This document shows, piece after piece, positions 7,844-26,226 of a stretch of 64,000 nucleotides of DNA. The notes beneath the pieces are model-generated. The model searched no databases, was not told the origin of the DNA, and saw nothing but the letters and a program-made list of their open reading frames with translations. Both the position numbers and the translations under genes were made by a program. Within the stretch, counting starts at the first letter, position 1, and each line of letters starts with the position of its first letter. The stretch is from an uncultured beta proteobacterium (GTDB taxonomy: Bacteria > Pseudomonadota > Gammaproteobacteria > Burkholderiales > Gallionellaceae). The stretch lies in contig CAVQPO010000001.1 of NCBI GenBank assembly GCA_963714805.1, positions 21,576-85,575 on the forward strand, in the 5' to 3' direction.

Positions 7844-7944
7844 GAAATATCCCAAGTGTGGAACGGATTAGCGCGATTCAAGCAATGTAAGGTGTTTGGT
7901 CTGCCGAGCTTCGACCGGCAGATTCAAAGCGTTCCGCAAGCTGT

Positions 7945-8601
7945 TCACAAACTCCTCGGGGATGTCGAGATGACCTCGGACGGCACTCCAAATTTCTTGG
8001 TCAGGCGAACACTATCCTCGAATCCATAGGACACAACGAAGGGATGCATGCCGGCACCAATCGCCGCGAGATAGTCGCTGTACTCGTCCCCACAAGCATA
8101 AGCTCGCGCAGGATTTATCGCAAAGGATTGCCTGGCATGTTTCATATGCACGGTCTTACTTTCCTTCAGTGGAATGCAAGCCAGGTAGTCGAATTTGCCG
8201 GTGTCGATTCCGTAACGACTAAAAAGGCATTTCAGTGTTTCTGCTGGCTCAATTGTCACATTACGAGTGATGAGCCCGACTCGAATGTCGGGAGCCGCCA
8301 GCAACTCGCGTAGCAAAGAGTCGATGCCCGGATACAAACATGCCTCGTAACGGTAGACCTCGGTGAGTGTCGCCAGCAATTGCTTGCGGTTTTGTTTGCC
8401 GAATTGGTGGCGCAGATTTGTTGGAAACTCCCTCAGTCCACCGAGGAATTTAAATAGTTTACGCCGCTTCTGAAAGCGATCGATGTCTCCAATATCCATT
8501 CCGTGGCGCAGAAAGGCCATCTCGATAGCACGAAATGCGTCTATGGTCGTGCCATCCGCATCAAAGATCACCAGCCGTTCCAAGTTGTCATAATGAGCCA
8601 T
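7945..8601 (-). CDS. HAD-superfamily hydrolase
   Basis: Motif I is VIFDADGT; C-terminal GDEYSD motif. Confidence 0.8.
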   Translation of the reverse strand: MAHYDNLERLVIFDADGTTIDAFRAIEMAFLRHGMDIGDIDRFQKRRKLFKFLGGLREFPTNLRHQFGKQNRKQLLATLTEVYRYEACLYPGIDSLLRELLAAPDIRVGLITRNVTIEPAETLKCLFSRYGIDTGKFDYLACIPLKESKTVHMKHARQSFAINPARAYACGDEYSDYLAAIGAGMHPFVVSYGFEDSVRLTKKFGVPSEVISTSPRSL

Positions 8602-9939: not shown

Positions 9940-10725
9940 TTATATTGATAATTCACCGCTATTAATCCGCCCCCTTTGCTTCCAAAGTATCGCAGCCGCC
10001 CATGCCAGTGAGGCAATAACCGATACGCTACCCAAAACATGGGCAAAAGCCCCCCAATGTTGTGCGTTGCGAATTTGTCCAAACGTACCCAACAAATATA
10101 TCCAGTCATGCGGCCCATCCTCGCCGGTGTGTCCACCCAGTAAAATCAATTGCGGTTGCAAGGCGTCGTAGATGTAGGGAGATAGATCGACAAGACTTAC
10201 GCTAGTCCACCATAAACAAATCGCTGCCCCAAAGTTATCTCGATTGACCACTACAAAAGCGATGCCGATTCCAAAAGGAAAAACGATCTGGAATAGACTG
10301 CCGCCCAGAATCATCATGAACTCGCCGAACGGCCTGAACAATACATGCCCTGCCTCGTGTATCGGCAATAGGATATTGTGCATAAAAGATCCCCCTATTT
10401 CACCATCACGATAATCGTAGCCAATCAAATACCAGCTCCAACAGGCGAGTAGCAATAGGGCAACACAGCGAGCGTAAAAAGTGACAGAGTCCATCCGGTC
10501 CATTGGAAGGAACAGGGACATGAGATAGCAGCCCTTTTCTTCTGGAAATATTTCATCTGGTAAATTCTCTGGAACGGGCAAGCGAGGAGATCGCCCCCAC
10601 TTGAACGTGAAAATCCCACAAGCAGGACAAGGCTCACTAACCGGCAATGGCGTGACGGGTTGGTAACCGCACTTCGGGCATTGAGAATAAGTTTCCGACA
10701 TCGGCAATCCCTGCGTACAGCCCAT
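9940..10725 (-). CDS. Membrane protein with an N-terminal zinc ribbon and an HEAGH (HExxH) motif
   Basis: CPKCGY...CPACG, then about 5 TM segments and LLPIHEAGHVLF. Its ATG overlaps the stop of the upstream gene (TAATG). Confidence 0.6.
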   Translation of the reverse strand: MGCTQGLPMSETYSQCPKCGYQPVTPLPVSEPCPACGIFTFKWGRSPRLPVPENLPDEIFPEEKGCYLMSLFLPMDRMDSVTFYARCVALLLLACWSWYLIGYDYRDGEIGGSFMHNILLPIHEAGHVLFRPFGEFMMILGGSLFQIVFPFGIGIAFVVVNRDNFGAAICLWWTSVSLVDLSPYIYDALQPQLILLGGHTGEDGPHDWIYLLGTFGQIRNAQHWGAFAHVLGSVSVIASLAWAAAILWKQRGRINSGELSI

Positions 10726-13700
10726 TATTCACGAATATTATCAAACAGCTTGACGAACTCAGCCGCAATAACCGGACGGCTGAAGAGATACCCTTGAACT
10801 TCATCGCAGCCGTAGTTGCGCAGGAAAGCAAGCTGTGCATCATTTTCCACTCCCTCAGCGATGACGGAAAGTTGCAGGGTATGCCCCATCTGGATGATTG
10901 CTCTGACAATCGCGGCAGAATCCGGGTCTTCGGCCAGATCGCGCACAAAAGATTGATCGATCTTGAGCTTGTTCACTGACAACTGCTTCAGATAAGACAG
11001 ACTGGAGTAACCCGTGCCAAAGTCGTCAATGGAAAGCTTCACTCCCATTTCTTTGAGGCTGCGCAAGGTTTTGATCACGACATCGATATCCTGCAACAGG
11101 ATGGTCTCAGTCAGTTCCAGCTCCAGTTGAGAGGCTGGCAGACCGGATTGTTTAAGGGCATTGACTACGGTTTCGAACAAGTTACCGCGTTTGAATTGCA
11201 ATGCTGAGAGGTTAACTGCCATCACCAATGGCTGGCCGTTTTCGCACCAGAATTGTGCCTGTCGGCAAGCTTCATTCAACACCCATTCACCCATCTGAAT
11301 AATCAGACCGCTGCGTTCCGCCAGCGGAATAAACTTGCCTGGCGGAATCAGCCCAATCTCGGGATGTTGCCAGCGCACCAAAGCTTCCGCGCCGACTATG
11401 CGTCCACTGCCGATGTCGACCTGCGGCTGATAGTGCAGCAAGAATTCATTATTTTTGACCGCATTGCGCAATTGCCCTTGCAGATGCAGTTGTTCCTGTG
11501 CATCGATATTCATCTTCTCGGAAAAGAAGCGGTAAGTATCGCGACCGCTATCTTTGGCCTGATAAAGTGCGGTATCCGCATTCTTGAGTAGAATGTCAAA
11601 TTCTCTGCCATCGTCAGGGTACAAACTGATCCCGATACTGAATGTGGTATTGATAGAATAATTCTCGATTTCGAAGGAGTCGGCGAAAACATCAATGATG
11701 TGATGGGCGATACCGCTGATCGCTCTCATCTCGCTCAAATGGGGCAGCAACACCACAAACTCGTCTCCGCCCTGACGGCTGATCGTATCGGCATCGCGCA
11801 GACAGCCGCGCAAGCGCTCAACCACACGCACCAGCAACTGGTCACCGTAGTTGTGGCCCAGCGTATCGTTGACCTGCTTGAAATTATCCAGATCGAGGAA
11901 TAGCACCGCCACCCCTGAATGCTCGCGATCCGCCTGTGCAGTTGCCTGTTCGAAACGGTCGCGCAACAGCAGGCGGTTGGGCAAACCGGTCAGCAGGTCG
12001 TGATGGGCCAGAAACTCCAGTTTTCTTTCCGCTGCCTCATGCTCGACACGGGTGCGCAGTGTTTCGATACCGTAAGCCAGATCGCTGGCAAGCTCTTCCA
12101 GCAAAGTCACCTCTTCTTGACTGAATGAATCAGGAATAGAGGAATAAATGGTGAGAGCGCCCAGTACGCGCTTTTTACCGATCAGCGGCAATCCGATGCT
12201 GGAGCGTAAACCGCTCGCAAGTGCAATCTCGCGCCACAGGGCGCTGCGTGGATTGGTCTGGTAGTCCGGGTTGATATCTGTCAGTCCCGTCCTAATTGCG
12301 GTGCCCGTCACGCCATGCCCGTGCTCCGTGTCCGCCCAGGATATCATCAGGCTACCCAGATAATTGTTGTCATCACCGTGCTGCGCAACCGGATGCACGG
12401 ACTTTTCCGCATCCTGTTCGGCAAACCCGACCCATGCCATGCGATAGCCTCCCGTCTCAACGACCAGCCGGCAGATTTCGGACAACAACTTGCCCTCTTC
12501 CACCGCATGCACCAGAGTCGTGTTGCAATCGCTCAGCAACTTGAGTGCGCGGTTCAGTTGCTTCTGGGTTTGTTCGGCAACTTTGCGTTCGGTGATGTCC
12601 TGATTGGCACCTATCAGTCTGGTGGTCACTCCTTGATCATTTTTTTCGATTTTAAAACGTACCAGCACCCAGCGGATTTCGCCATCGGCACACACTATCC
12701 GCGCTTCGGCTTGAGAAAAGAAATCCGGATCATTCGCATTCAACGCACGTTTGATATGTTCGCCAACCAGTTGTGTATCATCCGGATGAACCAGCCGCTT
12801 GGCGAAATCTGCCGCATGCATGCGATATCCTCCCACCTGCCCGGCGGTGGTGTGGTGCAATGAATAGTATTGATCGTTGAAGACAAATTCATCATTGGCT
12901 ACTTCATACTCCCAATGTCCCAAACGGGCTATTTTCAAGGCTTCCGAAAGATTGGCTTCGCTCTCCCGCAATGCAGCTTCCGCCTGCAAGCGAACATTGA
13001 GCATTTCATTGAACTCTTGCGCCACTTCCATGATTTCAGGCGGACCGGCCAGCTCGGCCCTGACTTCATGTCTGCCTTGTCTGATCGCTCGCGAAGCTAA
13101 CGCAAGGGTTCTGATCGGGCGAGCTATCCGGCGCGCGATTAACCATGCAACGCCCAAAATAAGCAACAAACTGATCAAGCCCAGCACAGCATTTCTGAGC
13201 AGTGTGGCGCGAAGCTGGGAATAAACTACGCTGGTCGGGATACCCACATACGCATACCAATCCGCGCCTTTTACCGGGGTAATGGCATAAAACCTAGGAA
13301 TGGAATCAATGCCCACCCCTTCTATTTCTCCATCCTTTAACGCTAATATTTTTTGGATATTTTCGTTGCTTCGCAGATTCTTCCCCACCCATTTTTCAGT
13401 TTCGAGATTGCGCCATACAATGGTTTCATCCGCCGTAATGACCCCCATGATTGTGCCTGGAATCAGAGGAGCTTTGGAAAGGTTGGGTTCATACAGCGCC
13501 AGATCGAGTGGCAGGCCAAGAAAACCGATCTTTTTACCTTGGTCATTGTGGATCGGATAGGTTAGCACCGTCACCCATCTGCCGGTGATAGGGCCAAAGA
13601 AGGGTTCGCCCACAACAAAACCATCTTCGGCAAGTGACCGCTTGACCCATTCCGTCTGGGCAAGCTGCATCGGCTTGCCCCCCGGTTGTGGAACCGCTGA

Positions 13701-14036
13701 ACAAATTGCCGCACCTTGAATGTCGATCACGGTCATGTTCGCCGATTTTGGTAATAGCTCGTGAAAATCCCATAACACTTGGTCGCAATGCTTCCCATCC
13801 ATCTTGCGGATGAGCGGTCGTTTTGACATCTGCACCAGAAAATCTCGGTTTGACATCAAAACACGTTCAACATCCGATGAAGCGACCACGGCAAGAGTGC
13901 GCGCAGTAGATTTTGCCGCCACGATACTTTGCTGCGCATCGTCGTAAATCGTATAAACAAAGATCGCGACCATAGGCAATGCAATGGCCGTCACCAGTGC
14001 CATAAGCTGTACCCGAATTGTGAAGCGCAATTTCAT
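10725..14036 (-). CDS. Sensor diguanylate cyclase/phosphodiesterase (periplasmic Cache-like domain, HAMP, PAS, GAF, GGDEF, EAL)
   Basis: 1103 aa. TM - periplasmic domain - TM, an intact GGDEF (RQGGDEFVV) and EAL (EALVRW...DDFGTGYSS). Confidence 0.9.
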   Translation of the reverse strand: MKLRFTIRVQLMALVTAIALPMVAIFVYTIYDDAQQSIVAAKSTARTLAVVASSDVERVLMSNRDFLVQMSKRPLIRKMDGKHCDQVLWDFHELLPKSANMTVIDIQGAAICSAVPQPGGKPMQLAQTEWVKRSLAEDGFVVGEPFFGPITGRWVTVLTYPIHNDQGKKIGFLGLPLDLALYEPNLSKAPLIPGTIMGVITADETIVWRNLETEKWVGKNLRSNENIQKILALKDGEIEGVGIDSIPRFYAITPVKGADWYAYVGIPTSVVYSQLRATLLRNAVLGLISLLLILGVAWLIARRIARPIRTLALASRAIRQGRHEVRAELAGPPEIMEVAQEFNEMLNVRLQAEAALRESEANLSEALKIARLGHWEYEVANDEFVFNDQYYSLHHTTAGQVGGYRMHAADFAKRLVHPDDTQLVGEHIKRALNANDPDFFSQAEARIVCADGEIRWVLVRFKIEKNDQGVTTRLIGANQDITERKVAEQTQKQLNRALKLLSDCNTTLVHAVEEGKLLSEICRLVVETGGYRMAWVGFAEQDAEKSVHPVAQHGDDNNYLGSLMISWADTEHGHGVTGTAIRTGLTDINPDYQTNPRSALWREIALASGLRSSIGLPLIGKKRVLGALTIYSSIPDSFSQEEVTLLEELASDLAYGIETLRTRVEHEAAERKLEFLAHHDLLTGLPNRLLLRDRFEQATAQADREHSGVAVLFLDLDNFKQVNDTLGHNYGDQLLVRVVERLRGCLRDADTISRQGGDEFVVLLPHLSEMRAISGIAHHIIDVFADSFEIENYSINTTFSIGISLYPDDGREFDILLKNADTALYQAKDSGRDTYRFFSEKMNIDAQEQLHLQGQLRNAVKNNEFLLHYQPQVDIGSGRIVGAEALVRWQHPEIGLIPPGKFIPLAERSGLIIQMGEWVLNEACRQAQFWCENGQPLVMAVNLSALQFKRGNLFETVVNALKQSGLPASQLELELTETILLQDIDVVIKTLRSLKEMGVKLSIDDFGTGYSSLSYLKQLSVNKLKIDQSFVRDLAEDPDSAAIVRAIIQMGHTLQLSVIAEGVENDAQLAFLRNYGCDEVQGYLFSRPVIAAEFVKLFDNIRE

Positions 14037-14517: not shown

Positions 14518-16770
14518 TCAGAGATGCTTGCGATAAAAGTCCAGAAAATCGTCAGCCGGTAATGGGCGGCTGAAGAAGTATCCTTGAATCTGGTCGCAGC
14601 CCATTGTTTTGAGCAGTTCGAGTTGTTCGGCGTTTTCCACGCCTTCGGCCACGGTGGATAGATTGAGCGCTTGCGCCATCGCCACTATTGTCCTGGCAAT
14701 CGCCACATCGTCGGTGTTAGCCGGGGTGTCTTTGATGAAGGCGCGGTCTATTTTTACACAATCAATCGGGAAGCGCTTGAGATAGGCGAGCGATGAGTGT
14801 CCGGTGCCAAAATCGTCAAGCGCCAAGTGGATGCCACGGTCGTGAATTGCGCCCAGCAATTTTATAACTCCCTCCGGATCATCCATCACCATGCTTTCGG
14901 TGATTTCCAGTTCCAGCGAATTGACGGGAAGCCCCGTTTCGGCAAGCGCAACATCAATTTCGTCCAGCAGGTTGGCGGAACGGAACTGCCTTGCGGAGAG
15001 ATTAACCGCCACCCGCAACGGGCGCAAACCAGCTTGCTGCCACTCGGCGTTTTGACGGCATGCTTCCCGCAATACCCAGCGTCCAATCGCAACAATTAAA
15101 CCGGTATCTTCGGCAACGGGTATGAACTCAACCGGGGAAATCATTCCGCGTTCCGGGTGTATCCAGCGGACGAGTGCTTCCATGCCGAGCAAACGACCTG
15201 TCATCGTATCCACCTTGGGCTGGTATTGCAGCCGCAGTTCGCCATTTTCCACCGCATGTTGCAGGTCGGCTGCCAAGCGCAGAACCTTGGTAGCGGCAAG
15301 TCCCATGGCTTCGTCATAGACCGCAAAATCATTGCCGCCCGCTCGCCGCACCCGGTTGCAAGCAGAGGCCGCGTGTTGCACCAGTGTTTCTGCCATGCTC
15401 GCAGGATCGTTGCAATCGTCGCCACCCATGATCGCAGTTCCGATCGACAGCGTTGAGAACAACTCACGCCTTTCAACGTGAAGTGGCAGCTGGGCAGCAC
15501 CGAGCAGTTGCTCGGCACGTCGCTGCGCTTCGGTCAAGTCGCCTGACCAGCGCACCAAAACGAAGGCATTGCTGCCGAAGCGGTAAAGTTTCTCTTCTTC
15601 GGCGTTGGTTCGATCATTCAAACGACTGGCAACCTTGACCAGCCAGCGCTCGGTATCAACCGCACCGTAGCTCTCAAAAATCTCCTGTTCACGGTCAGGG
15701 GCGATCATCATCACCGTTCCCTCCCGCTGCCGGGTAAACGCTGCGCTCAGATCTTTACGCAGGCGGTATTGGTTGGGCAGTCCGGTCGCGGGATCAAAGA
15801 ACGCCTGGTAGGCAAGCTTTTCCTCGGCTTGCTTGCGCGCGGTCACATCCTTGATGTAAACGTGGAACTCGGAAAAGTCTGCCAAATGCGCCACTGTGCA
15901 TTCGAGGGTATGTTTGCCATGCGCATACTCAAATTGCATGTTGGAAGACGGTGCAGCACTGGTTTCAACTAAACGCTGGTGCAAATCGGTGGGCAGCAAT
16001 TGTGCCGATTCCGTGGGTGCGAGATTCAGCCGAGCCAGCAATTCGGCTGTGGCGGGGTTGGCATAGAGCACCTCGCCCCAAGCACCAAGGCGCAACACCG
16101 GGTTAGGATCACGTTCGGGGAACATCGCAAGTCTGCGGCGTTCCAATCCCTCGCGGATGATGGCGACGACATAGTAACCGACAAAAAAAGCGACGCCAAA
16201 AATCAACACCGAGAAACCGATGACCCAGCCCACCATGGTAGATACGCTGTTCTGGGAATCCGCCCCCAGATTGTCAACCGCCTGCTGGTTAGCTGACGAC
16301 ATGGTGGCGAGAGTCGCCTCGATCTGCCGCACCTTGGGCTTGACAAGCGCCAGAAGCGCGCGAGCCTTGTCCCAATCTACATTAGCGCTGGCAAGGGTTG
16401 CGGATAGAACATCGGACAACTGCCCCAGTTCCACCAATCGGGTGCGCAACTCAACCACTTGTTCATGTGAGCCGCTGTCTTTTTCGAGTTCGTCGACTAT
16501 CTTGACCAGATGCTGGTCATTAAGAACGCGCTGTGCCTCGAACGATTCTTTGGTAGCGGTAAAAGAATAATATTCATATAGCAGGCGCTCTTCGTCGGCA
16601 ATGACACCGCGCAGTTCGCCGATACGCTGGGACAGAGGGAGTTTTTCGGCTATAAACATCCGGTTCACGGATTGTACCGAATCGCCCAGAGAGACGATGC
16701 GGGCTGACACCGCAATGCCGACGGTCAAAACGAGCAGAAAAGCCCACCATATTCTGCGCTGAAGCATCAC
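14518..16770 (-). CDS. Membrane GGDEF-EAL protein with a degenerate cyclase site
   Basis: 750 aa. EAL domain is intact (EALVRW, DDFGTGHSS). The GGDEF position reads RFGSNAF. Confidence 0.85.
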   Translation of the reverse strand: MMLQRRIWWAFLLVLTVGIAVSARIVSLGDSVQSVNRMFIAEKLPLSQRIGELRGVIADEERLLYEYYSFTATKESFEAQRVLNDQHLVKIVDELEKDSGSHEQVVELRTRLVELGQLSDVLSATLASANVDWDKARALLALVKPKVRQIEATLATMSSANQQAVDNLGADSQNSVSTMVGWVIGFSVLIFGVAFFVGYYVVAIIREGLERRRLAMFPERDPNPVLRLGAWGEVLYANPATAELLARLNLAPTESAQLLPTDLHQRLVETSAAPSSNMQFEYAHGKHTLECTVAHLADFSEFHVYIKDVTARKQAEEKLAYQAFFDPATGLPNQYRLRKDLSAAFTRQREGTVMMIAPDREQEIFESYGAVDTERWLVKVASRLNDRTNAEEEKLYRFGSNAFVLVRWSGDLTEAQRRAEQLLGAAQLPLHVERRELFSTLSIGTAIMGGDDCNDPASMAETLVQHAASACNRVRRAGGNDFAVYDEAMGLAATKVLRLAADLQHAVENGELRLQYQPKVDTMTGRLLGMEALVRWIHPERGMISPVEFIPVAEDTGLIVAIGRWVLREACRQNAEWQQAGLRPLRVAVNLSARQFRSANLLDEIDVALAETGLPVNSLELEITESMVMDDPEGVIKLLGAIHDRGIHLALDDFGTGHSSLAYLKRFPIDCVKIDRAFIKDTPANTDDVAIARTIVAMAQALNLSTVAEGVENAEQLELLKTMGCDQIQGYFFSRPLPADDFLDFYRKHL

Positions 16771-16882
16771 TTACCCTTTCTGGCAACTCTAACTATTGCA
16801 CGGCGGATGACCGGTATCCATCAAGACACCGGTCATCGCGTATCAGAAACTAATTGGCTGCAATGCTTATCAAGCCTATCGC

Positions 16883-17173
16883 TTAATACTTTCCGGAAAC
16901 TTCGGCCTTGTATCCGGCTGGTTCAAGCTTGCCTCCAATTTTTTCGCAGCTTCCCTTCGGAAGAGGTATGAAATCGTTGGGGTCATTATCAACCTTTGAA
17001 TGCCCGGCGCAGGAATGCTTGCTCTTATTGCTGTTGCAGGCATTCTGGCCCGCCTTGGCAACACCCCAACATTTCTCCTCGTCGGCAGCATAAGCAGAGA
17101 TGGCTGAGGTAGTGATGCCGAGCGCGAGCAAACTGGCAACGGCAGTGTTGATCAGTGTGTTTTGATCTTTCAT
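16883..17173 (-). CDS. DUF2282-type Cys-rich secreted peptide (bufferin-like RiPP precursor, copy 2)
   Basis: Signal peptide ...AISAYAA, then [25 protein letters not shown]...KGSCEKIGG. 4 Cys with spacing C-x10-C-x8-C-x20-C. Confidence 0.8.
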
Positions 17174-17273
17174 GATCTGAATCTCCTTTACAAGTTGAAC
17201 AATTTATCCTGCACAGTGCAGATACTTTACCATCTTGAACATGGATTGTCCGCGAAGAGTATGCACGAACTGT

Positions 17274-17732
17274 CTAAGCTGATTTTTGTAATTGCCTTTC
17301 CAGCCAGAAATCCACAGACCATTGCCAGCGGCTTATCAGCAGTAACACAGCCAGCAACAACCCCCAATATAAGTGCTGGTTTAGACCAGCCTCACTCAAT
17401 CCCGAGTAATAAGAAATGACCGCGACCAGGTTAAGGATGAACAACCCCGCTGCCGCGAAACGCCCGAACAGCCCAAAAACCAGCAGCACGGACAGTCCCA
17501 GCTCGGCACTGGTGGCTAGCCATGCCGCAACCTCAGGTGGCAGCAGCGGCACCTGATACACATCGTTGAACAGGTATAGCGTGCTATCCCAACTTTGTAT
17601 TTTGGTCAGCCCGGATTTAAAAAATACGTTAGCCAGTAATAGCCGTATCCCAAGGTCTAACACGGGTGCCAGATATTCCGGCAGGTGGGAAGCGGCGTAG
17701 TAAAATCGGATCGGACGTAATAACTTATTCAT
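17274..17732 (-). CDS. DoxX-family membrane protein
   Basis: 152 aa, 4 TM, with the LLLANVFFKSGLTK-type motif. 8-nt overlap with the upstream gene. Confidence 0.8.
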   Translation of the reverse strand: MNKLLRPIRFYYAASHLPEYLAPVLDLGIRLLLANVFFKSGLTKIQSWDSTLYLFNDVYQVPLLPPEVAAWLATSAELGLSVLLVFGLFGRFAAAGLFILNLVAVISYYSGLSEAGLNQHLYWGLLLAVLLLISRWQWSVDFWLERQLQKSA

Positions 17733-18510
17733 GGCGTTTACTCAAACTGAAATCGATCAGTACATTTTGTGCTACCAGATTTAACAACGCGGCTTGCAAG
17801 TCAAAGTCCGGATGGCGTTCCAGCGTGGCAGTGGTTACCGCACCCAGCGGAACTCCGGCCTGTATGGCTTCCAGCCACGAGGCACCGGATTCCGTCTGTT
17901 CGCTGACCAGAACAACATCATTCTTGCGGCTGACCAGAGCTCTGCATGAACCACTATCGAGATCAATGCGAAAATTGTCGGGCGCGCCGGGCTGGTGGGC
18001 ATGCCAGATTGCGGCAATCGGATAGCGGGAGCGCACCAGATGACACGCAGGGTGGGTGTGCAGGATCAGGTCGGGATATTGCTCGGGCGGTATCATCCCC
18101 AGCTTGCCGATATCCAGCGTGGCTTCATCGTCTGAGAAATAGGCGCAGTGGCAGGCCCACTCCAGAGCCGCAACATCCGGCAGATAGGCCAATCCTTGCG
18201 CAGGTTCGAAGGCAGCCAAAAAGTCTGCCATTCCCGCGCCGTAGTGATGCAGGTTGCCGCTACACGAAAGATGCTGCCCGATGAATTGCCGCGTCATGTG
18301 CCGGAAAAAATCCTTGCCCACGAGTTGCTCGATGACCGGATATGCCCCCGCAAGTGTATCGTGCAGATTGCCGCGATAATTGTTTAGATAAACTTCAATG
18401 GCAACGGAGGCAGAATAATTCCGGTAGTTCGAGTCGATCTGCGACGATATCTCCTCGCCAAGCACGATGGCGCGGGCGAAATCGGACAAGTCTTCGGCCA
18501 ACTCACGCAT
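17725..18510 (-). CDS. DUF2063-family protein (MNIO partner / putative precursor-recognition subunit)
   Basis: 261 aa with N-terminal YRNNYRGNL-like motif (YLNNYRGNLHDTL) and LPDVAALEWA. Position is directly after the DUF692 gene. Confidence 0.75.
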   Translation of the reverse strand: MRELAEDLSDFARAIVLGEEISSQIDSNYRNYSASVAIEVYLNNYRGNLHDTLAGAYPVIEQLVGKDFFRHMTRQFIGQHLSCSGNLHHYGAGMADFLAAFEPAQGLAYLPDVAALEWACHCAYFSDDEATLDIGKLGMIPPEQYPDLILHTHPACHLVRSRYPIAAIWHAHQPGAPDNFRIDLDSGSCRALVSRKNDVVLVSEQTESGASWLEAIQAGVPLGAVTTATLERHPDFDLQAALLNLVAQNVLIDFSLSKRHE

Positions 18511-19336
18511 GACTATCCTCCAACCGTAGCTGTGCTTTAGCCGCTTCGCCCATCAGCACGGACAGCGCTGGAATGTCGCTGTCCCATTCGATCAGCGTAG
18601 GACGCGGCCCGATGTGTTGCAAGGCAAACTCATACAATTCCCACACCTCGGGATAGACCGGATGGTCATGGGTATCTACCAGGCAGCCGTCCCTTACGCT
18701 GTATCCGGCCAAGTGATATTCCTTCACGGCTTCAGCAGGAATGGTATCGATGAAAGCTTCGGCATCCACGCCGAGGTTGCGCATATTTACATACAGATTT
18801 TCAACATCGAACAAAATGCCGCAGCCAGTGCGCCTGGTCAGCTCTGCCAGAAACTCACCCTCGCTCATTTCGCTGTGCGAGAAAGATAAATAGCTGGAGA
18901 GGTTTTCCACCAGCAACTGGCGGCCAAGTTTTTCCTGAACCTGCTCCACGCGACTTGCCACATGTGATAACGCCCCATGCGTATACGGAAACGGCAACAA
19001 ATCGTTGATAACCATTCCTGCCGCAGTATTCCAGCATAGATGCTCCGACACGACGGCAGGCTGCACCGCATCGCACAGGCGACACAAAGCTGATAAATGC
19101 GTCTGATCAAGAGGGGCGGACGAAGCCAGCCCCATACCCACACCATGCAAGCTGACTGGATAATGTTCGCGCACCTTGAGCAATGTGCGCAGGGGCGCGC
19201 CGCCCCCGAAAAAATTCTCGCTATGCAATTCCACCCAGCCGAGCTCGGGCAGTGTTTCCAAAACTTCGCAGTAATGAGGTGCCCGCAACCCAATACCTGA
19301 TGTGCATGGCAAGGTATGTTTTGCGGGCGTATTCAT
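18503..19336 (-). CDS. DUF692 / MNIO-family (MbnB-like) enzyme
   Basis: GIGLRAPHY...VELHSENF...SLHGVGM...SEHLCW... are TIM-barrel MNIO motifs. ATG at 19336 overlaps the precursor stop (TAATG). Confidence 0.85.
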   Translation of the reverse strand: MNTPAKHTLPCTSGIGLRAPHYCEVLETLPELGWVELHSENFFGGGAPLRTLLKVREHYPVSLHGVGMGLASSAPLDQTHLSALCRLCDAVQPAVVSEHLCWNTAAGMVINDLLPFPYTHGALSHVASRVEQVQEKLGRQLLVENLSSYLSFSHSEMSEGEFLAELTRRTGCGILFDVENLYVNMRNLGVDAEAFIDTIPAEAVKEYHLAGYSVRDGCLVDTHDHPVYPEVWELYEFALQHIGPRPTLIEWDSDIPALSVLMGEAAKAQLRLEDSHA

Positions 19337-19602
19337 TACATGGCTTTCAGGGTGCCGCCGGCGATCTTCTCGCAAGTGCCTTTAGGCACGGCGACAAAAT
19401 CCATGGGGTCATTGTTTTTGGTGGCCTGCCCAGCGCAGGAATGCGCGCTCTTGTTGCTTGAGCAGTCATTCTGGCCCGCCTTGGCGATACCAAAGCATTG
19501 CTCCATTTCCATTTTCTTGTTGGCAGCACTTGCGTTGCCGCTGGACAGACCCAGCACCAGTAAACTACCAATTGCGGCGGAGAGCATATGACGGTTGTTC
19601 AT
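19336..19602 (-). CDS. DUF2282-type Cys-rich secreted peptide (bufferin-like RiPP precursor, copy 1)
   Basis: Signal peptide ...SGNASAA, then [25 protein letters not shown]...[10 protein letters not shown]. Cys spacing is identical to copy 2. ATG at 19602 follows AAAAGGGG. Confidence 0.8.
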
Positions 19603-19680
19603 AGTAAAACCCCTTTTCGTAGGTTGATTTAGTTTAAGAGCTAGCCCCAACCATAGGTCAGAGAAAGTCGGCTCCCTTTA

Positions 19681-19821
19681 GGGAACCTCTAAAAATCCAA
19701 TTTTCGTCGCGATACTGCGTTGCTCACAAAAAGTTACTCCTTACATATCAAACATATGCTGCGTCGTAATTTTTTGTTCGCGCCTTGTCTAGCTTAGAAA
19801 ATTGAATTTTTAGAGGCTCCC
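19681..19821. mobile_element. MITE-like element, copy 2
   Basis: GGGAACCTCTAAAAATCCAATTTTC ... GAAAATTGAATTTTTAGAGGCTCCC. Flanked by a direct TTTA/TTTA. The interior aligns with copy 1 along its whole length. Confidence 0.6.
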
Positions 19822-20017
19822 TTTACTTCGAAATGCGCGGACTCAAGTTCATCTGCCTTTCATCCACACACCTGCATATTCAGGATTAATTGAAAAAAAG
19901 TTACATGATAATTTTAAAAATTTTGGATTGCCGCTACTTTGCTGTTGTCCAACATTCCCCAAAAAATCTTATTGCAAAGATGCCCTAAGCCTTGCACATG
20001 TATGAAAATTAGATAAA

Positions 20018-20401
20018 TCATGCAAAAACGTTCAAAAGGCTTCCAATAGTTCCGCTCGACAGAGTCAAGACATTGGATGACATATTGTCAACTTTACCGC
20101 TTACGCTTAGGGCTGATATTGTCGAATCTTTATTTTTATAGGAAGGTGTATTTGCATTAGTTAAGGTCGCACTAATACTAGGTTTCGCGGCATAAGTAGT
20201 TTTTATTCGCTGCTCTAGCTCGCTAATTTTATTCGATAACTCTGATATTTTGGCTTTCCCTTCAGGGGTTGTGTGCGATGGACAACTGACCCAGTCGGCA
20301 AGTTGTATTTTGCATTTATCAAGCTGAGTTTCGAGATTGGCTGTTGATAGGCCAGCTCCCATGGGGTTGGGGTATGTGGATATTCCGATGGCGCTCGACA
20401 T
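20018..20401 (-). CDS. Hypothetical Ser/Thr-rich protein in an AT-rich patch
   Basis: 127-aa ORF with a short coiled-coil-like segment (KISELSNKISELEQRI). No confident family. Confidence 0.3.
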   Translation of the reverse strand: MSSAIGISTYPNPMGAGLSTANLETQLDKCKIQLADWVSCPSHTTPEGKAKISELSNKISELEQRIKTTYAAKPSISATLTNANTPSYKNKDSTISALSVSGKVDNMSSNVLTLSSGTIGSLLNVFA

Positions 20402-20743
20402 GCGGTTCTCGCGAAAGGCTTATTGATATAGCGCGGGAAATTGCAAAAGTAAGTGCTCCAGCTTGGGCATCTGGAGCAGTTGATTGTATGAAACTTGCGC
20501 CGGATTGTATCGGATGCGCACCGATACTGCCATTTGATCGGGCGATGCGGCGCTGGTATTTGACGGCGCGCCCCTACCAAGCATGAAACACAAGCTGCCG
20601 TTGAATAAATACCTAATGATGAGTTTTATAGTTAGCATGAAGACACTCCTTGAAGTCTGCATAACCAGTTATCATTCGTTCTGTCTGACTATTTATTCGA
20701 ACAAAGCCGAAAAATGGTTACATAAAATATTCACGGAACTTGT

Positions 20744-21283
20744 GTGACAGATACAACTGACAGTCTTGAAGTGCTGATGAAGCAGGCTCTGAATGGTGAC
20801 CAGCGCGCCTACGCTGGCCTGTTGCGGGAAACATCGCGCTTTCTTCGCCCATTCCTGGCGAAACGCCTCAGCTTCACTAACGAAGTGGAAGACCTGTTGC
20901 AAGAAATCTTGATTTCCATTCATAAAGCCCGCCACACCTACGATGGCAACCGGCCCTATAAACCTTGGGTCTACGCCATTGCCAAATTCCGTTTGCAGGA
21001 TTATTTGCGTGCGCATTATTCCGATCAGTTGCACCATGCCATCGAATTGTCCGAGGTGGAAGAAAATTTGTCTGAATATGTAACCGAAACCGCCATCAGT
21101 TACGAATCAATTAGTGGGGAAGTCCAAAAACTTCCCGAGAAACAGGCGACCATCCTGCAACTGATGCACCGGGATGGCTACACCGCCAAAGAGGTGGCGG
21201 AAAAGATGGGCATGAATGAGTCTGCCGTGAAAGTCGCGGCGCATCGCGCCTACAAGGTATTGAGAAACAAACTGGAAAGATGA
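20744..21283 (+). CDS. ECF (group IV) sigma factor, SigF-like
   Basis: Region 2 (DLLQEILISIHKARHTYD) and region 4 (LPEKQATILQLMHRDGYTAKEVAEKMGMNESAVKVAAHRA). GTG start. Confidence 0.85.
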   Translation: MTDTTDSLEVLMKQALNGDQRAYAGLLRETSRFLRPFLAKRLSFTNEVEDLLQEILISIHKARHTYDGNRPYKPWVYAIAKFRLQDYLRAHYSDQLHHAIELSEVEENLSEYVTETAISYESISGEVQKLPEKQATILQLMHRDGYTAKEVAEKMGMNESAVKVAAHRAYKVLRNKLER

Positions 21284-21918
21284 TGGAAGATATCGAAGTG
21301 CTGATAGCCAGGCTGGCAAAAGATACTGCGGCAGTAAAACCTGCCCCGCATCCTTACATGCTAAGCCTCAAATGGATGGGATGGGCTGCAGCCTACCTCA
21401 TTCTGTCGCTTATGCTTTCCGGCATTCGCCCAGACCTGATGTCAAAACTGCATGAGCCATTGTTTGTTGCTGAAATAGCTGCACTTGTTGGCATCTTCTT
21501 CGCCACGACTCTAAGCTCGGCATTGCTGTCGTTTCCCGATATGCATCAGATGCCCAAACTGGCATTGGCACCGACAATTGCATTTGCGCTATTTGTGCTT
21601 GTATTGTTTCTTGCATGGCAGGCCGATAAACCGCAATCTCCGCTACCTGTCCACAGCTTCGAATGCACTGTCAGCATTACTTTGTTTTCACTGTTGCCAG
21701 CAGGTTGGACATTTTACGCAATGAGGAAATTTGCCAGCACGCATTATCACTGGGCAGGTGGCATCGCCATTCTTTCCGCCTTTAGCGTCGGGGCATTGTG
21801 GCTGAGGCTGCATGAGATAAATGACTCAATCGTGCATGTTATCGAGTGGCATTATCTACCCATGATAGTTTTCGGCATGGCTGGCTTGTGGATTGGGAAA
21901 AAATTATTAAAGTGGTAA
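21280..21918 (+). CDS. NrsF-type (DUF1109) membrane anti-sigma factor
   Basis: 4-nt overlap with the sigma gene. N-terminus is IEVLIARLAKDTAAVKP followed by 6 TM segments. Confidence 0.75.
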   Translation: MMEDIEVLIARLAKDTAAVKPAPHPYMLSLKWMGWAAAYLILSLMLSGIRPDLMSKLHEPLFVAEIAALVGIFFATTLSSALLSFPDMHQMPKLALAPTIAFALFVLVLFLAWQADKPQSPLPVHSFECTVSITLFSLLPAGWTFYAMRKFASTHYHWAGGIAILSAFSVGALWLRLHEINDSIVHVIEWHYLPMIVFGMAGLWIGKKLLKW

Positions 21919-21993: not shown

Positions 21994-24123
21994 TCAGCTA
22001 ATCTTGATCTTGGTGATAGCCTGCTGGATACGATCAGGAGTCATCGGCAAACGTAACATGCGCGCCCCGGTGGCATCAAAAATCGCATTGGCTATCACCG
22101 CGCCAGTTGTCGTGATCGGCGGCTCTCCCCCACCCTGCGGTGCCAGATCGTCATTCTTGACCAGCACCACGTCGATTCGGGGAACCCATGAAAAGCGCGG
22201 AATTTCGTAAGTGTCGAAATTCCGATCAAGAATCTCTCCGCCCAGAAAACGCAACTCCTCTGCCAAGGTGTATCCCAGCCCCATGGTAATGCCGCCTTCA
22301 ATTTGCATTTTTGCACCTTCCGGATTCACGACGATGCCCATGTCCTGTGCGCAAACCACCCGAATTACTTCCACGCTGCCATTTGCCTGATCCACCTTAA
22401 CCTCGGCCATGGTCGCGACGTAGGTTCCGGCGTCGATGCTGCACGCCATCCCGAAGCCTCTTTTGCTCGGCGAAACAGCCGCCTTCCAACCGAAGGCATC
22501 GGCAGCGGCTTGCAAGACTCTGCGCATCCTGGCATCCGTCAGATTGCGGAGCCGGAACGCGAGCGGATCCATTCCTGCCGCTGATGCCATCATGTCAATT
22601 TGCGACTCGATGGCAAATATGTTCATGTTTGCGCCCGGTGCCCGCCACGGCCCCACGGCAAACGGATGAATACTTGCCTTTGCGGTGGGAGTGCCGTACG
22701 AAGTTTCTCCGGCGGTTCCAATCCGCACATTCGGGATATCGTAGCAAGGGGTTGCCCCGCGTTCTCCGGCTGCGTAGATGGAGCTATCCCATAGTGAGAC
22801 TCTGCCATCAGCTTCAATTCCCGAGACGATTTTTACCACCGAGGCGGGATCAAATGTGTCGTTGAAGAACTCTTCTTCGCGGCTCCAGGCCACTTGCACG
22901 GGTTTGCCCGTGAGTTGTGCCAGCCGTGCCGCTTCGACGGCTTGGCCGTCGGCGCTCTTACCGCCGAACCCGCCGCCGAGAAAAGGGGTTATCACGCGTA
23001 CATTTTTTTGATCCAGATCGAGAACCTTGGCGATGCGGTCACGCGTCGGAAATGGGGTCTGCGTCGATGCCCACACCGTTGCCATCCCGTTGTTGATTTC
23101 AACCAGCGCCGCGTGTGGCTCCATGGCCGCATGAGCGACATATCCTTTTTGGTAGGTCGTCTCGAACAAGCGTGCGACACTGGCATGCGCCGCTTTAAGA
23201 TCACCCCGCTCTGCCAAGTTTTTCAACGGGGGAGCCTGTAACAAGAGGTGATCAAAGATACTTTCAGAGTTCACCTTCGCTTCCGGCAAATGCCAGTCCG
23301 CTTTGATGCGCATGAATGCGACAGCGGCAGCTTCGGGATCGGCGTGCAGCACGGCAACCAAGTCACCATGCTTAACCAAGGTGATCCCCGGCATTTTCTC
23401 GGCATCAGAGGTATCCAGTTGCGCCAAGGTTGCGCCATGCATCGGCGGACGCAGTATTCGCGCATACAACATGCCGGGAATTCTGATGTCGGCAGCGTAT
23501 TTCGCAGCCCCCGTAACTTTCTCAAGTGCGTCGAGCCGTTTCGGCGAAGCGCCCATCACACTAAATTCAGAGGCCGCCCGTAACACGGCTTTCTTGTCTA
23601 CCAGTTGTGCGATTCGCGCCCCCTTGGAAAGTTCGCCGTAACTGACTTTCCGGTCAGGTTCGCCTTTCACATACACAACACCGTCCTTGACCAGAAGTTT
23701 GTCATGCGGCACGCCCAGCTTCCCCGCAGCCAGCGTCATCATGGTTGCACGAGCCTGTGCGGCGGCAGCGCGCAATGCCGGCCCGAACATGCGGGTGGTC
23801 AGTGAGCCGAACGTCCCCCTGTCCCACGGGCATTTGTCGGTATCGCCCAGCACCATGTCGATAGAAACCAGCGCAACGCCCAACTCTTCGGCCACCATTT
23901 GTGCCTGTGAGGTCAACACGCCCTGCCCCATCTCGATCTTCCCGGAAAAAACCGTGACGCGCCCGTTCTCGCCGATCAACAGATAGGCGTTGAAATCCTC
24001 CGGGTAAAGAAGTTTCGTTGCTTGCGAGAAAACCTGCAAAGGGCCAAGACCGACGAAGACGACAATACCGCCCCCCACCAGCTTGAAAAAACTGCGACGA
24101 CTCATGCCAGCAGAAGTGTTCAT
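21994..24123 (-). CDS. Molybdopterin-binding subunit of a two-subunit aldehyde/isoquinoline-type oxidoreductase (IorB-like), Tat-exported or anchored
   Basis: 709 aa with a twin-arginine motif SRRSFFK. EMGQGVLTS and GGGFGGK motifs. Confidence 0.85.
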   Translation of the reverse strand: MNTSAGMSRRSFFKLVGGGIVVFVGLGPLQVFSQATKLLYPEDFNAYLLIGENGRVTVFSGKIEMGQGVLTSQAQMVAEELGVALVSIDMVLGDTDKCPWDRGTFGSLTTRMFGPALRAAAAQARATMMTLAAGKLGVPHDKLLVKDGVVYVKGEPDRKVSYGELSKGARIAQLVDKKAVLRAASEFSVMGASPKRLDALEKVTGAAKYAADIRIPGMLYARILRPPMHGATLAQLDTSDAEKMPGITLVKHGDLVAVLHADPEAAAVAFMRIKADWHLPEAKVNSESIFDHLLLQAPPLKNLAERGDLKAAHASVARLFETTYQKGYVAHAAMEPHAALVEINNGMATVWASTQTPFPTRDRIAKVLDLDQKNVRVITPFLGGGFGGKSADGQAVEAARLAQLTGKPVQVAWSREEEFFNDTFDPASVVKIVSGIEADGRVSLWDSSIYAAGERGATPCYDIPNVRIGTAGETSYGTPTAKASIHPFAVGPWRAPGANMNIFAIESQIDMMASAAGMDPLAFRLRNLTDARMRRVLQAAADAFGWKAAVSPSKRGFGMACSIDAGTYVATMAEVKVDQANGSVEVIRVVCAQDMGIVVNPEGAKMQIEGGITMGLGYTLAEELRFLGGEILDRNFDTYEIPRFSWVPRIDVVLVKNDDLAPQGGGEPPITTTGAVIANAIFDATGARMLRLPMTPDRIQQAITKIKIS

Positions 24124-24596
24124 GATTTTTCTCCCATATGGAGGGAAGCGGCCTCAATCGCCGCAACAATTCTTTGGTGCGCCCCGCAACGGCAAAGGTT
24201 ACGTTCCATATGAGTAACAATTGTTTCACGCGACGGCTTGGGATTTTTGCGGAGAAGTGCATAAGCATCCAGAATCATGCCCGAGGTACAGTAGCCGCAC
24301 TGTAACGCGCCGTGATCGATAAATGCCTGTTGCAACGGATGCAATTTGCCATCGCGGGCAAGGCCTTCTATCGTGACGACTTCCTTGCCCTCTATATTCT
24401 TGAGCAACGTTTTGCAAGAGCGCACAGCCTTGTCGCCGACAAGTACAGTACATGCGCCACATATTCCCTCACCGCACCCGTACTTGGTGCCGGTAAGATC
24501 GAGATCGGTGCGCAACACCCAGAGGAGTGTGCGATCATCATCGGTGGTCAGGGTGATGGGCTGGTCATTCAGAGTAAAGCGGATGGAGCGTTTCAT
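24120..24596 (-). CDS. (2Fe-2S)-binding small subunit (IorA-like)
   Basis: GCGEGICGACTV and LQCGYCTSG...CRCG motifs. ATGA overlap with the large subunit. Confidence 0.85.
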   Translation of the reverse strand: MKRSIRFTLNDQPITLTTDDDRTLLWVLRTDLDLTGTKYGCGEGICGACTVLVGDKAVRSCKTLLKNIEGKEVVTIEGLARDGKLHPLQQAFIDHGALQCGYCTSGMILDAYALLRKNPKPSRETIVTHMERNLCRCGAHQRIVAAIEAASLHMGEKS

Positions 24597-24935
24597 ATTG
24601 CCTCCATGCAAAAGTCGAGATCAATTGCCAAGGTCAAATCAACGGTGCGGAGCTGCGAAAATCATCGGCCTCACAAGAGCCCAACCTCAACGAGTCTCTC
24701 GTTGAAACCGGGAAGCCGAGCACGTTCGAATTGTAGCACTCCTCGGGTTGTGTGCAGTGATTTACGGATGCGCACAAAGTTGCAATGCGCAACCATGCGT
24801 TATCATACTCATAGAGCCATTCCATCACACGGATAGATATTCCTTGACCCGAATTGCGGAACCCACGCCCAATCCTCTGGCGAGAACAGGTAGCGGATAA
24901 CCTAATACCAATTCTCCTTCAATAGTGATGTATTT

Positions 24936-24992
24936 GTGGAAGTGGCCTCCCGGCCGCGACAATATTTATCGTGGCCGGGAGGCCACTCCCAC
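24936..24992. repeat. 57-bp GC-rich palindromic (REP-like) element, family B, intergenic copy
   Basis: GTGGAAGTGGCCTCCCGGCCGCGA-loop-TCGTGGCCGGGAGGCCACTCCCAC. Related to 31511-31567. Confidence 0.7.
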
Positions 24993-25030
24993 GAAACATT
25001 ATTCCCGTATTGAATTGGAAATGGAATAAG

Positions 25031-25540
25031 CTAATCGGAGTTATTGTGCTGAGGTTGAAACTTGACGGCAGCAATCCGTGCCGTTACCAGAACAGCCAGC
25101 AGGACTGAAAGCGCCAGAATTTCATTCCAGCTTATGCTGTGGTCATAAAGACCGATAAATATCTCCCGCAATATAAAGGCAATGCCAACTTCAGCCAGCA
25201 CTCTTAGGCGGACGCGGCGGTATTCTAAATAGTCCGTGAATGTGCGAAACAACTCAATGAGCACAAAGACCGAGAGAACATCAATAACCAACTCCCGGTC
25301 GATACCGTCAACCAATCCATGGGCAAGGTTATGAGTCGACACTGCATCGCGAAAGGCAGTCGCAGCCGAAAAGAAATCCAGCACCAATCCCGCCAATGCC
25401 CCCAGCAGAGTGAGCAGCATGACAAAGATCAGAGCCGTGACAATAGCATCCAATATCTTGCCATAGATACGAAGCGCTTGAATCTTCGCACCCGACTTTT
25501 CAATTTCGGGAATTTCCTCTTGCATCTGTTGTTCTGTCAT
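25031..25540 (-). CDS. PsiE-like (phosphate-starvation-inducible E family) membrane protein
   Basis: 4 TM. FVLIELFRTFTDYLEYRRVRLRVLAEVGIAFILREI resembles the PsiE core. Confidence 0.55.
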   Translation of the reverse strand: MTEQQMQEEIPEIEKSGAKIQALRIYGKILDAIVTALIFVMLLTLLGALAGLVLDFFSAATAFRDAVSTHNLAHGLVDGIDRELVIDVLSVFVLIELFRTFTDYLEYRRVRLRVLAEVGIAFILREIFIGLYDHSISWNEILALSVLLAVLVTARIAAVKFQPQHNNSD

Positions 25541-25614
25541 TTATCAGCCTATCGCTTATGTTATCCGAACCACTTGTCCGTTTACAAACTCAACAAGTCG
25601 CAGTTACCCGTTTA

Positions 25615-26226
25615 TTACAGATTTTGCAGATCACCCATGTTGTCGATGTCAGCAAAAACTCCATTATTGTCGATCTTTATTGGCACAAACTTTGATCTAT
25701 CATACTCCAGCAAGCGTCGCGCTCCAGCATCCCCATGGAGGGCAAGCAATTCTTCGCGGTAATGCGCAGCAAATCCGACCGGATGTCCGCGTTTACCAGC
25801 ACAGAAAGGGGCCGCCAGGTCTGCCCCGTCCAACAATGCATTTCGCACGCCGACAATAGCTGCCGATGGTACAACAGGCATATCGGCCAGCCCGATCAGC
25901 CAACCCGCTGCGTCAAGGTTTGCACGCACGCCACAGGCAAGGCTGGTGGCCATGCCCTGCGCAGCATCCTCACAAACAACCCAGCGTATCGCCGATGCCT
26001 GGGTCGTCCCCAGCGCAGTTTCGATCGCACTGCAAAATACTTCTGCCTGTGGCCTGACTACTACAGTGATGCGCTCGAACACCTCCAGCCAAGGCAGGAC
26101 ACTGTGTGCGGCGAGTGGCAGAGTCACTCCATGCAGCGTAACCGGATGCAGCAATTTATCCGAACCGAAGCGGCGCGAGGCTCCTGCTGCCAGCACGATA
26201 GCAGCGATTTCACTTTTATCAGGCAA
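25615..26226 (-). CDS. MobA/MocA-like molybdenum-cofactor nucleotidyltransferase
   Basis: [20 protein letters not shown]-terminal motif. Lies directly after the Mo-enzyme genes. Confidence 0.7.

Follow-up and report, generated by a model that had tools for sequence, protein, structure and literature searches.

A Buf1-type bufferin cluster from an uncultured member of the Gallionellaceae and a second DUF2282 peptide gene paired with a gene for a predicted membrane c-di-GMP phosphodiesterase

Introduction

Why does a bufferin gene cluster that encodes a single maturase carry two genes for DUF2282 peptides, and with which of its neighbors does the second one belong? This question is raised by a stretch of 64,000 nucleotides of DNA from an uncultured beta proteobacterium of the Gallionellaceae (assembly GCA_963714805.1, contig CAVQPO010000001.1, forward strand, positions 21,576-85,575), which is referred to here as the window and to which all coordinates apply unless a related locus is named. 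[quoted passage not shown] The second peptide gene, named A' here, lies behind bufD and ahead of a gene for a predicted membrane cyclic di-GMP (c-di-GMP) phosphodiesterase (PDE). We give a probability of roughly 0.78 to the reading that the locus is a Buf1 cluster in which A' supplies a further substrate to the maturase BufB and its partner BufC, and in which A' also forms a separate, old unit paired with the PDE gene.

Clusters of this type have been surveyed widely. Thousands of Buf1 and Buf2 clusters were compiled in PMC12452194 (2025), according to which sigma factor and NrsF genes occur in clusters of the Buf1 type, precursor genes stand in tandem in some clusters, and a sizeable share of precursors is unlinked to an MNIO gene. 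The grouping of MNIO-DUF2063 clusters in PMC13097082 (2026) covers tens of thousands of them and 21,424 precursor peptides. A first-pass annotation of the window had called the family barely explored outside Caulobacter, a statement that surveys of thousands to tens of thousands of clusters have made outdated. In Caulobacter, the SigF-NrsF pair controls buf1 (PMC11626156), the SigF site GTAACC-N16-CGAA was defined experimentally, and SigF responds to chromate, cadmium and copper (PMC3511200). A literature search on DUF2282 together with c-di-GMP, EAL or Gallionella returned no paper with DUF2282 among its top results.

Materials and Methods

Protein families were assigned by Pfam and NCBIfam profile matches, the latter with their curated cut-offs. 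The window was compared with 80 species-representative loci centered on BufB (1.03 Mb), in which genes were located by BLASTP, and with a second set of loci centered on A', a few of which are redundant. Downstream genes were counted in loci whose sequence extends 1 kb or more beyond the last core gene, of which there are 69, and A'-PDE pairs in loci with at least about 290 nt of sequence 3' of A'. Related loci are designated by L-numbers; L006 comes from the closest related species, whose BufB is 91% identical to that of the window.

Results and Discussion

The core bufABCD cluster

The four core genes lie on the minus strand. The gene bufA (19336-19602; 88 aa; PF10048, E = 1.8e-25) encodes a Buf1 (DUF2282) precursor with a predicted Sec signal peptide and four cysteines, bufB (18503-19336; 277 aa from its ATG; PF05114 MbnB_TglH_ChrH, E = 3.4e-101) encodes the MNIO (DUF692) maturase, bufC (17725-18510; PF09836, E = 3.1e-19) encodes the DUF2063 partner, and bufD (17274-17732; PF07681, E = 1.2e-18) encodes a DoxX membrane protein. 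The stop codon of bufA and the ATG of bufB have one A in common in a TAATG junction, and 8-nt overlaps join bufB to bufC and bufC to bufD. The first-pass annotation had placed these genes and A' at the same coordinates as five minus-strand genes, with these overlaps, this junction and a 100-nt gap before A', all of which was confirmed in the open reading frame (ORF) list and in the sequence. The models for DUF2282 (with both peptides), DUF692/MNIO, DUF2063 and DoxX all matched significantly. The description of the five genes as tightly coupled holds for the four overlapping core genes and fails for A', which follows a 100-nt spacer with a promoter-like block.

BufB scored 360.7 bits against the NF050167 MNIO_BufB equivalog model ('MNIO family bufferin maturase'; curated cut-off, 310) and fell far under the cut-offs of the NCBIfam models for HvfB, ApyH, MbnB and ChrH. 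Residues H64, H99, E144, D177, N180, H208, D221, H223 and E250 do not vary among 13 BufB sequences, and H99, E144, D177, N180, H208, D221 and H223 align with H90, E133, D163, N166, H192, D208 and H210 of MbnB, which we take to be the iron ligands of the MbnB structures, in agreement with the alignment numbering. When solved structures were searched by sequence, BufB matched only those of DUF692 proteins (3BWW, 8HCI) and MbnB, and no homolog of BufC was found. A heuristic check assigned a Sec-type N-terminus to both peptides, with a charged n-region, a hydrophobic core and a 9-residue hydropathy maximum of 2.5, and predicted cleavage between ASA and A after residue 26 and between AYA and A after residue 29, a pattern that is kept in orthologs. 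The four cysteines stand at positions 36, 47, 56 and 77 of BufA and at 35, 46, 55 and 76 of A' with identical spacing, and all four are present in 74 of 76 BufA and 21 of 22 A' orthologs. When the 64-kb window was scanned with a profile made from about 100 orthologs, bufA and A' were its only DUF2282 ORFs.

Judged by these profile matches, the core of the locus is a Buf1-type bufferin MNIO RiPP cluster, an ordinary member of a well-surveyed family. The first-pass annotation had proposed a bufferin-type MNIO cluster whose first peptide is a four-cysteine DUF2282 protein with a secretion signal, and both proposals stand: every core family matches, BufB exceeds the equivalog threshold, the ligand positions are intact, and SigF- and NrsF-type genes with a matching promoter are present (see below). 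The nearest BufB sequences (76-91% identity) all come from Gallionellaceae, Gallionella, Sideroxydans, Nitrotoga or unclassified Nitrosomonadales metagenome-assembled genomes (MAGs). The core cluster is nothing new in kind; it extends the Buf1 family and its SigF/NrsF control to uncultured iron-oxidizing Gallionellaceae.

The second peptide A' belongs to a separate paralog lineage

A' (16883-17173, minus strand; 96 aa; PF10048, E = 4e-22) starts exactly 100 nt past bufD and has an AGGAG ribosome-binding site 8 nt 5' of its ATG. More than 240 homologs were found, mostly of exactly 96 aa and with 65-88% identity among 120 listed, and proteins identical to A' carry the names of Gallionellaceae MAGs. 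The ratio of nonsynonymous to synonymous substitution rates (dN/dS) of A' against 12 orthologs was 0.11-0.27 (median, 0.16). The profile match, the homologs and this ratio all support the earlier call of a DUF2282 gene at this position.

A downstream DUF2282 gene was present in 21 of the 69 related loci, and in every one of the 21 it was of the A' type. The first-pass annotation had regarded a trailing precursor as a departure from the canonical layout, which we agree with, but the layout recurs in the clade at the frequency just given. In a neighbor-joining tree of the mature domains, all 22 A' sequences formed one clade that included none of the 76 BufA sequences, and mean identity was 57% between the two groups versus 78-83% inside each. 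The A' sequences are marked by a histidine after the third cysteine (CAGH instead of CAGQ in 21 of 22 A' versus 2 of 76 BufA), by CNSN after the second cysteine, and by a C-terminal tail of about 14 residues. The origin of A' as a recent duplicate of bufA was considered and rejected because BufA and A' share only 52% identity and A' is monophyletic across species. From these comparisons, A' is an old paralog under selection and a real gene. No solved structure was found in a sequence search with the A' profile, and an AlphaFold2 model of A' from a 15-sequence alignment was unusable (mean predicted local distance difference test 45.5; predicted template modeling score 0.21).

The arrangement resembles the tandem and stand-alone Buf1 precursors of PMC12452194 in that there is more than one DUF2282 gene per MNIO gene and that DUF2282 genes also occur away from MNIO genes. 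The two precursor genes of the window are not in tandem, being 2.2 kb apart and flanking bufBCD on opposite sides. In contrast to tandem clusters, the extra precursor sits at the 3' end behind a promoter-like block of its own and belongs to a monophyletic paralog group with a fixed PDE neighbor, of which no description was found in the text searched.

A' as a probable substrate of BufB and BufC

Around the two central cysteines, A' and BufA are nearly identical and share the pattern QN-x-C-[SN]-SNKS-x-HSCAG. These two cysteines carry the modification in Caulobacter Buf1, for which Lys24, Ser30 and Ala32 are listed as neighbors of the heterocycles (PMC11626156). In L006, bufA is reduced to a remnant of about 100 nt (positions 7890-8003 of that locus) in which the start and the end are kept and the core is deleted, and bufD is missing (9604-9700), with bufB, bufC, A' and the PDE gene intact. 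In L020, no ORF for bufA or bufD was detected by BLASTP. A' is the sole intact precursor gene that was detected beside bufBC in these two loci. From the shared context of the central cysteines and from the retention of bufBC with A' as the sole intact precursor, which is the strongest evidence on this point, the A' peptide is most likely a further substrate for this one pair of BufB and BufC. The A' lineage provides a natural setting in which to ask whether a single MNIO/DUF2063 pair acts on two substrates that have diverged, and the relatives with a decayed bufA point that way. Loss of bufD was also seen in L065.

Pairing of A' with the phosphodiesterase gene

The PDE gene (14518-16770, minus strand; EAL, E = 3.5e-76; GGDEF, E = 1e-16) lies directly 3' of A' and encodes a protein of 750 aa. 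Transmembrane segments at residues 10-28 and 187-205 enclose a periplasmic domain of about 158 residues, and they are followed by a PAS-like linker, a GGDEF domain that is degenerate and an EAL domain; the linker is missing from a variant that is shorter, at about 640 aa. The periplasmic domain contains no cysteine and no obvious metal site and is presumably helical. The EAL motifs EALVR and DDFGTG are intact, while the GGDEF motif reads RFGSNAF in the window and RFG[SG]NAF in 32 of 44 orthologs, which makes cyclase activity unlikely. Established knowledge of these domains indicates that the protein is most likely a periplasm-sensing c-di-GMP phosphodiesterase. A second c-di-GMP gene (10725-14036, minus strand), whose product of 1103 aa has a dCache-HAMP-PAS-GAF-GGDEF-EAL layout, is located directly 3' of the PDE gene; with two consecutive GGDEF-EAL genes, c-di-GMP genes are densely packed here.

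The next gene after A' was an ortholog of the PDE gene in 20 of 20 BufB-centered loci and in 36 of 36 A'-centered loci, or 56 loci in all. The distance between bufD and A' is about 50-135 nt in most loci and 1.3-5.6 kb in five of them (L087, L099, L100, L101 and L104), and no buf genes were found upstream of the pair in the sequence available for L086 (5 kb), L107 (5.4 kb) and L108 (3.8 kb). The genes outside the pair vary among loci. On the BufB tree, the linkage of A' with bufBCD changed state at least 10 times among 70 taxa, a rough figure given that the tree is shallow, which suggests that the A'-PDE pair survived several rearrangements. The constant partner of A' is the downstream PDE gene and not bufD, behind which A' is docked in about 30% of related species.

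That the pair exists without nearby bufBCD, and that the PDE gene follows A' in every case, would also be expected if A' were no substrate of BufB and BufC at all and were instead a periplasmic DUF2282 protein that stands alone, has either two disulfides or thiols that are free, and works with the PDE. Such a protein could report metal or redox state to the periplasmic domain of the PDE, which might need a partner since it has no cysteine or obvious metal site of its own, and the spot behind bufD would be a mere docking site in a SigF island. The promoter-like block in front of A', the lineage-specific histidine and C-terminal tail, and the many DUF2282 genes that are unlinked to MNIO genes (PMC12452194) fit this explanation as well. 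It leaves aside, however, that the surroundings of the central cysteines are conserved in A' as well as they are in BufA and that A' stays close behind bufD in most loci, and the keeping of bufBC in L006 and L020 is sensible only if A' is a substrate. We therefore regard a non-substrate role of A' as unlikely, and a second substrate as the better description.

Several related loci have additional genes near the pair. An ORF of 110 aa without a clear family (ASCH, E = 0.03) lies between bufD and A' in L004 (5611-5943), L087 (4520-4852) and L005 (293-625), and in L087 a 4HB_MCP chemoreceptor gene is also inserted there. An nrsF homolog on the opposite strand was seen about 6 kb 3' of A' in L024, L039, L043, L052 and L059, where the PDE gene is located between the buf genes and this distal homolog. 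In L134 (3047-6161), from a distant high-GC relative (BufB identity, 46%), bufABCD and a second DUF2282 gene are arranged divergently, and 337 nt beyond the latter lies a gene for a cytoplasmic PAS-GGDEF-EAL protein. This could possibly be an independent association of DUF2282 with c-di-GMP, or it could be chance. It was not accepted as support for the pairing because it is too generic.

Transcription of A' and the buf genes

The spacer between bufD and A' contains a conserved block, GACA-N17(TGn)-TAAAGT (17224-17250, minus strand), which resembles an extended -10 sigma-70 promoter and may function as one. The strict pattern was found in 15 of 34 bufD-A' spacers versus 0.08 expected from shuffles, a looser ATG[GT]TAAAGT-like block can be read from the alignment in about 24 of the 34, and the block persists in L006 and L091 despite the loss of bufD. 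No SigF motif was found in this spacer of the window, even with one mismatch, or in the spacers of those relatives where A' directly trails bufD. An alternative view of the GTAAAG in the spacer, as a SigF -35 element in degenerate form, was rejected, as the corresponding -10 position is not conserved and the GACA-N17-TAAAGT spacing is. Exact GTAACC-N16-CGAA sites are located 54-380 nt 5' of A' in L017, L092, L099, L101, L118 and L124 (chance below 0.001 per locus by our calculation), and near matches in L087 and L112; in the loci with a SigF motif before A', bufD is separated from it or is not found in the short upstream sequence available.

Between A' and the PDE gene, a stable hairpin with the 10-bp core GATGACCGGT/ACCGGTCATC is predicted at 16806-16837 (minus strand), and a consensus scanner called no terminator after A'. 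Most of the longer A'-PDE spacers of relatives are likewise predicted to hold a stable stem-loop, the sequence of which is not conserved, and a canonical terminator is seen in only a few (L017, L113). A TATAAT-like box occurs in this spacer in one subclade, and in L087 the stop called for A' overlaps the start called for the PDE gene. Our reading of these motifs is that A' would head its own unit and would also receive read-through from the buf promoter, and that A' would belong to the SigF regulon.

The regulatory genes are divergent from the buf genes. A SigF-like gene for an extracytoplasmic function (ECF) sigma factor (20744-21283, plus strand; Sigma70_r2, r4_2 and Sigma70_ECF; TIGR02937, 71.8 bits versus a cut-off of 42.9) is followed by an NrsF anti-sigma gene (21280-21918, plus strand; PF06532, E = 8.3e-43 over the full length), the start of which overlaps the sigma stop by 4 nt. 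A SigF/NrsF pair with a SigF-type promoter is a frequent, though not an obligatory, part of Buf1 clusters. The sole exact GTAACC-N16-CGAA match of the window (20696-20721, minus strand) is a predicted SigF-type promoter that faces the buf genes 23 nt from the sigma gene. A candidate proximal bufA promoter, GTAACT-N16-TGAA (19879-19904, minus strand), has the T-rich spacer typical of bufA promoters, which read GTAAC[CT]TTTTT...CGAA upstream of bufA in relatives, and is a weak call. This degenerate motif lies 277 nt before the bufA ATG versus up to about 150 nt in relatives. A 143-nt element (19680-19822, no strand assigned; no Rfam family) within the bufA leader, with 26-nt terminal inverted repeats whose arms are 92% complementary, may account for the long distance between promoter and ATG. 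This element resembles either an inserted miniature inverted repeat or a long hairpin of the leader, and the 64-kb window showed no other convincing copy of it; scans of the window for Rfam families and for tRNAs gave no hit.

In the 80 related loci, 58 exact GTAACC-N16-CGAA matches were found versus about 2 expected by chance according to our calculation, and nearly all of them are located about 10-150 nt 5' of called bufA ORFs, the starts of which are approximate. The motif is kept ahead of bufA in most relatives. By this comparison, control of the buf genes by the sigma factor is well supported.

Several observations weigh against the overall reading of the locus given at the outset. The window has two mismatches in its proximal bufA promoter, its exact SigF site is 1.1 kb upstream of bufA and beyond a decayed msrA and an ORF named orf127 (see below), and its bufA leader holds the inverted-repeat insertion as well as a terminator-like hairpin (19687-19670), which makes the strength of bufA expression here uncertain. 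The block before A' scores 8/12 against the sigma-70 consensus, and the consensus scanner called no sigma-70 promoter in the bufD-A' spacer. Modification and metal specificity of both peptides are inferred from homology. Owing to the hairpins in the A'-PDE spacer and the TATAAT-like box in some species, co-transcription of A' and the PDE gene is not established. Finally, all A'-PDE cases are in one family-level clade, from which all 23 homologs found for the N-terminal sensor region of the PDE also come, and inherited synteny thus explains part of the association.

If synteny explained all of it, A' would be a redundant second precursor, and its adjacency to the PDE gene would be inherited gene order of no functional meaning in Gallionellaceae, which are rich in GGDEF/EAL genes. 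The restriction to one clade, the two consecutive GGDEF-EAL genes of the window and the spacer elements that suggest separate transcription are what this explanation predicts. It has more difficulty with a pair that holds while both flanks change, that is intact although its linkage to bufBCD is inferred to have been gained or lost at least 10 times, that overlaps in L087, and that has 0 exceptions in 56 loci. We consider this a serious possibility, though one with somewhat less than even odds, and if the PDE link were synteny only, the locus would be an ordinary bufferin cluster. Under the reading preferred here, in which A' and the PDE gene form a unit, the property of note is that the extra peptide is paired obligately with a PDE gene; the second precursor itself would be no surprise to a specialist. 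The pairing, partly under SigF-type promoters, offers a testable hypothesis that joins metal stress, a modified peptide and second-messenger signaling, and it is a lead and not a result.

Proposed function of the locus

By analogy with Caulobacter (PMC11626156, PMC3511200), metal stress would cause NrsF to release the sigma factor, and transcription of the buf genes would follow. In the cytoplasm, BufB and BufC would oxidize the two central cysteines of BufA, and probably of A', to 5-thiooxazoles (PMC11626156). The peptide would be exported by Sec with removal of the signal peptide, the outer pair of cysteines would form a disulfide, and the folded small protein would chelate excess copper in the periplasm, again as in Caulobacter. 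The copper-stress regulon of the clade would then probably supply a further metallophore and might also lower c-di-GMP.

In terms of the metal, the cluster might instead serve another one, or might deal with oxidative stress or a sulfur stress, for instance in the micro-oxic habitat, rich in Fe(II), of the Gallionellaceae. All characterized members bind copper (PMC11626156, PMC13097082), and the sequences give no pointer to a different metal, which makes such a role improbable, even though the SigF response in Caulobacter includes chromate and cadmium (PMC3511200), bufferin fusions are known from mercury loci (PMC12452194), a methionine sulfoxide reductase gene stands under a SigF promoter in L006, and no copper-resistance gene was found among the neighbors sampled. 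Copper is retained as the metal in the scheme above.

In terms of signaling, the invariance of the pair in 56 loci, its survival when parted from bufBCD, and the SigF-type promoter that it then often has raise the idea that A' is a periplasmic sensing partner of the PDE. The modified or thiol-bearing peptide would bind copper and dock on the domain of about 158 residues, so that metal load would be converted into a c-di-GMP signal. We hold this to be a long shot. If true, it would make a RiPP the signaling ligand of a second-messenger enzyme, and biofilm, stalk or motility behavior, to name examples, could be affected in iron-oxidizing Gallionellaceae. In the NspS-MbaA system of Vibrio cholerae, a periplasmic protein is encoded beside the membrane GGDEF-EAL enzyme that it regulates. 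As an analogy only, the A'-PDE pair resembles it in that the gene for a secreted protein lies directly 5' of a gene for a membrane GGDEF-EAL protein with a periplasmic domain. NspS differs from A' in that it is a large solute-binding protein without sequence kinship to A'.

Comparison with known systems

The locus is most similar in plan to buf1 of Caulobacter vibrioides (bufA1B1C1D1, CCNA_03363-03366), with which it shares the four core genes, their order, the four-cysteine Sec DUF2282 precursor, the adjoining sigF-nrsF genes and the promoter consensus GTAACC-N16-CGAA (PMC11626156, PMC3511200). In contrast to Caulobacter, the window has a DUF2282 gene of a distinct lineage after bufD and then the membrane PDE gene, its sigma genes are divergent and 1.1 kb off with the decayed msrA and an ORF without known family in between, and its host is a betaproteobacterium of the Gallionellaceae.

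The 'captophorins' (Haemophilus hvf/oxazolin, Fontimonas fontiphorin and Neisseria gonophorin; PMC13097082, PMC11252979) also combine an MNIO enzyme with a DUF2063 protein, often with DoxX, and share with bufferins the conversion of cysteines to heterocycles, copper binding and stress-sigma control. Their precursors are EGKCG-repeat or Cys-Lys peptides, whereas those of the window are DUF2282 peptides. The proteins of the window scored below the cut-offs of the HvfABCX/oxazolin models, with 209.6 bits versus 360 for HvfB, 38.7 versus 142 for HvfC and 58 versus 80 for HvfX. The methanobactin enzyme MbnB belongs to the same superfamily as BufB and has the metal-ligand positions in common with it, but the methanobactin system differs in its partner MbnC, its precursor, its oxazolone-thioamide product and its role in copper acquisition, and BufB reached 75 bits against the MbnB model versus a cut-off of 325.

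Other genes of the neighborhood

A molybdopterin-dependent gene set of the aldehyde oxidase/xanthine dehydrogenase type (MoCoBD, 2Fe-2S, XdhC; 21994-29526, minus strand) adjoins the sigma and NrsF genes and has no obvious relation to the bufferin cluster. On the other side of the sigma gene, the remnant of a gene for a secreted MsrA (20420-20662, minus strand) is internally deleted to an 80-aa ORF; all that is left is the signal peptide, a short stretch from the middle and the C-terminal end, and the catalytic GCFWG region is gone. Its intact homolog is found at the same place in L006 (6770-7399; 209 aa; PF01625, E = 3e-59). The exact SigF-type promoter has this remnant immediately behind it, and the best predicted promoter thus now drives a dead gene.

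Between this remnant and the bufA leader lies orf127 (20018-20401, minus strand), which encodes a protein with two cysteines that matches no Pfam or NCBIfam family beyond a weak FlxA-like hit (E = 0.02). Homologs of orf127 are found beside buf genes in L006 (71% identity), L016, L031, L048 and L066, and directly 5' of A' in L089, and orf127 is a possible accessory gene in the SigF regulon.

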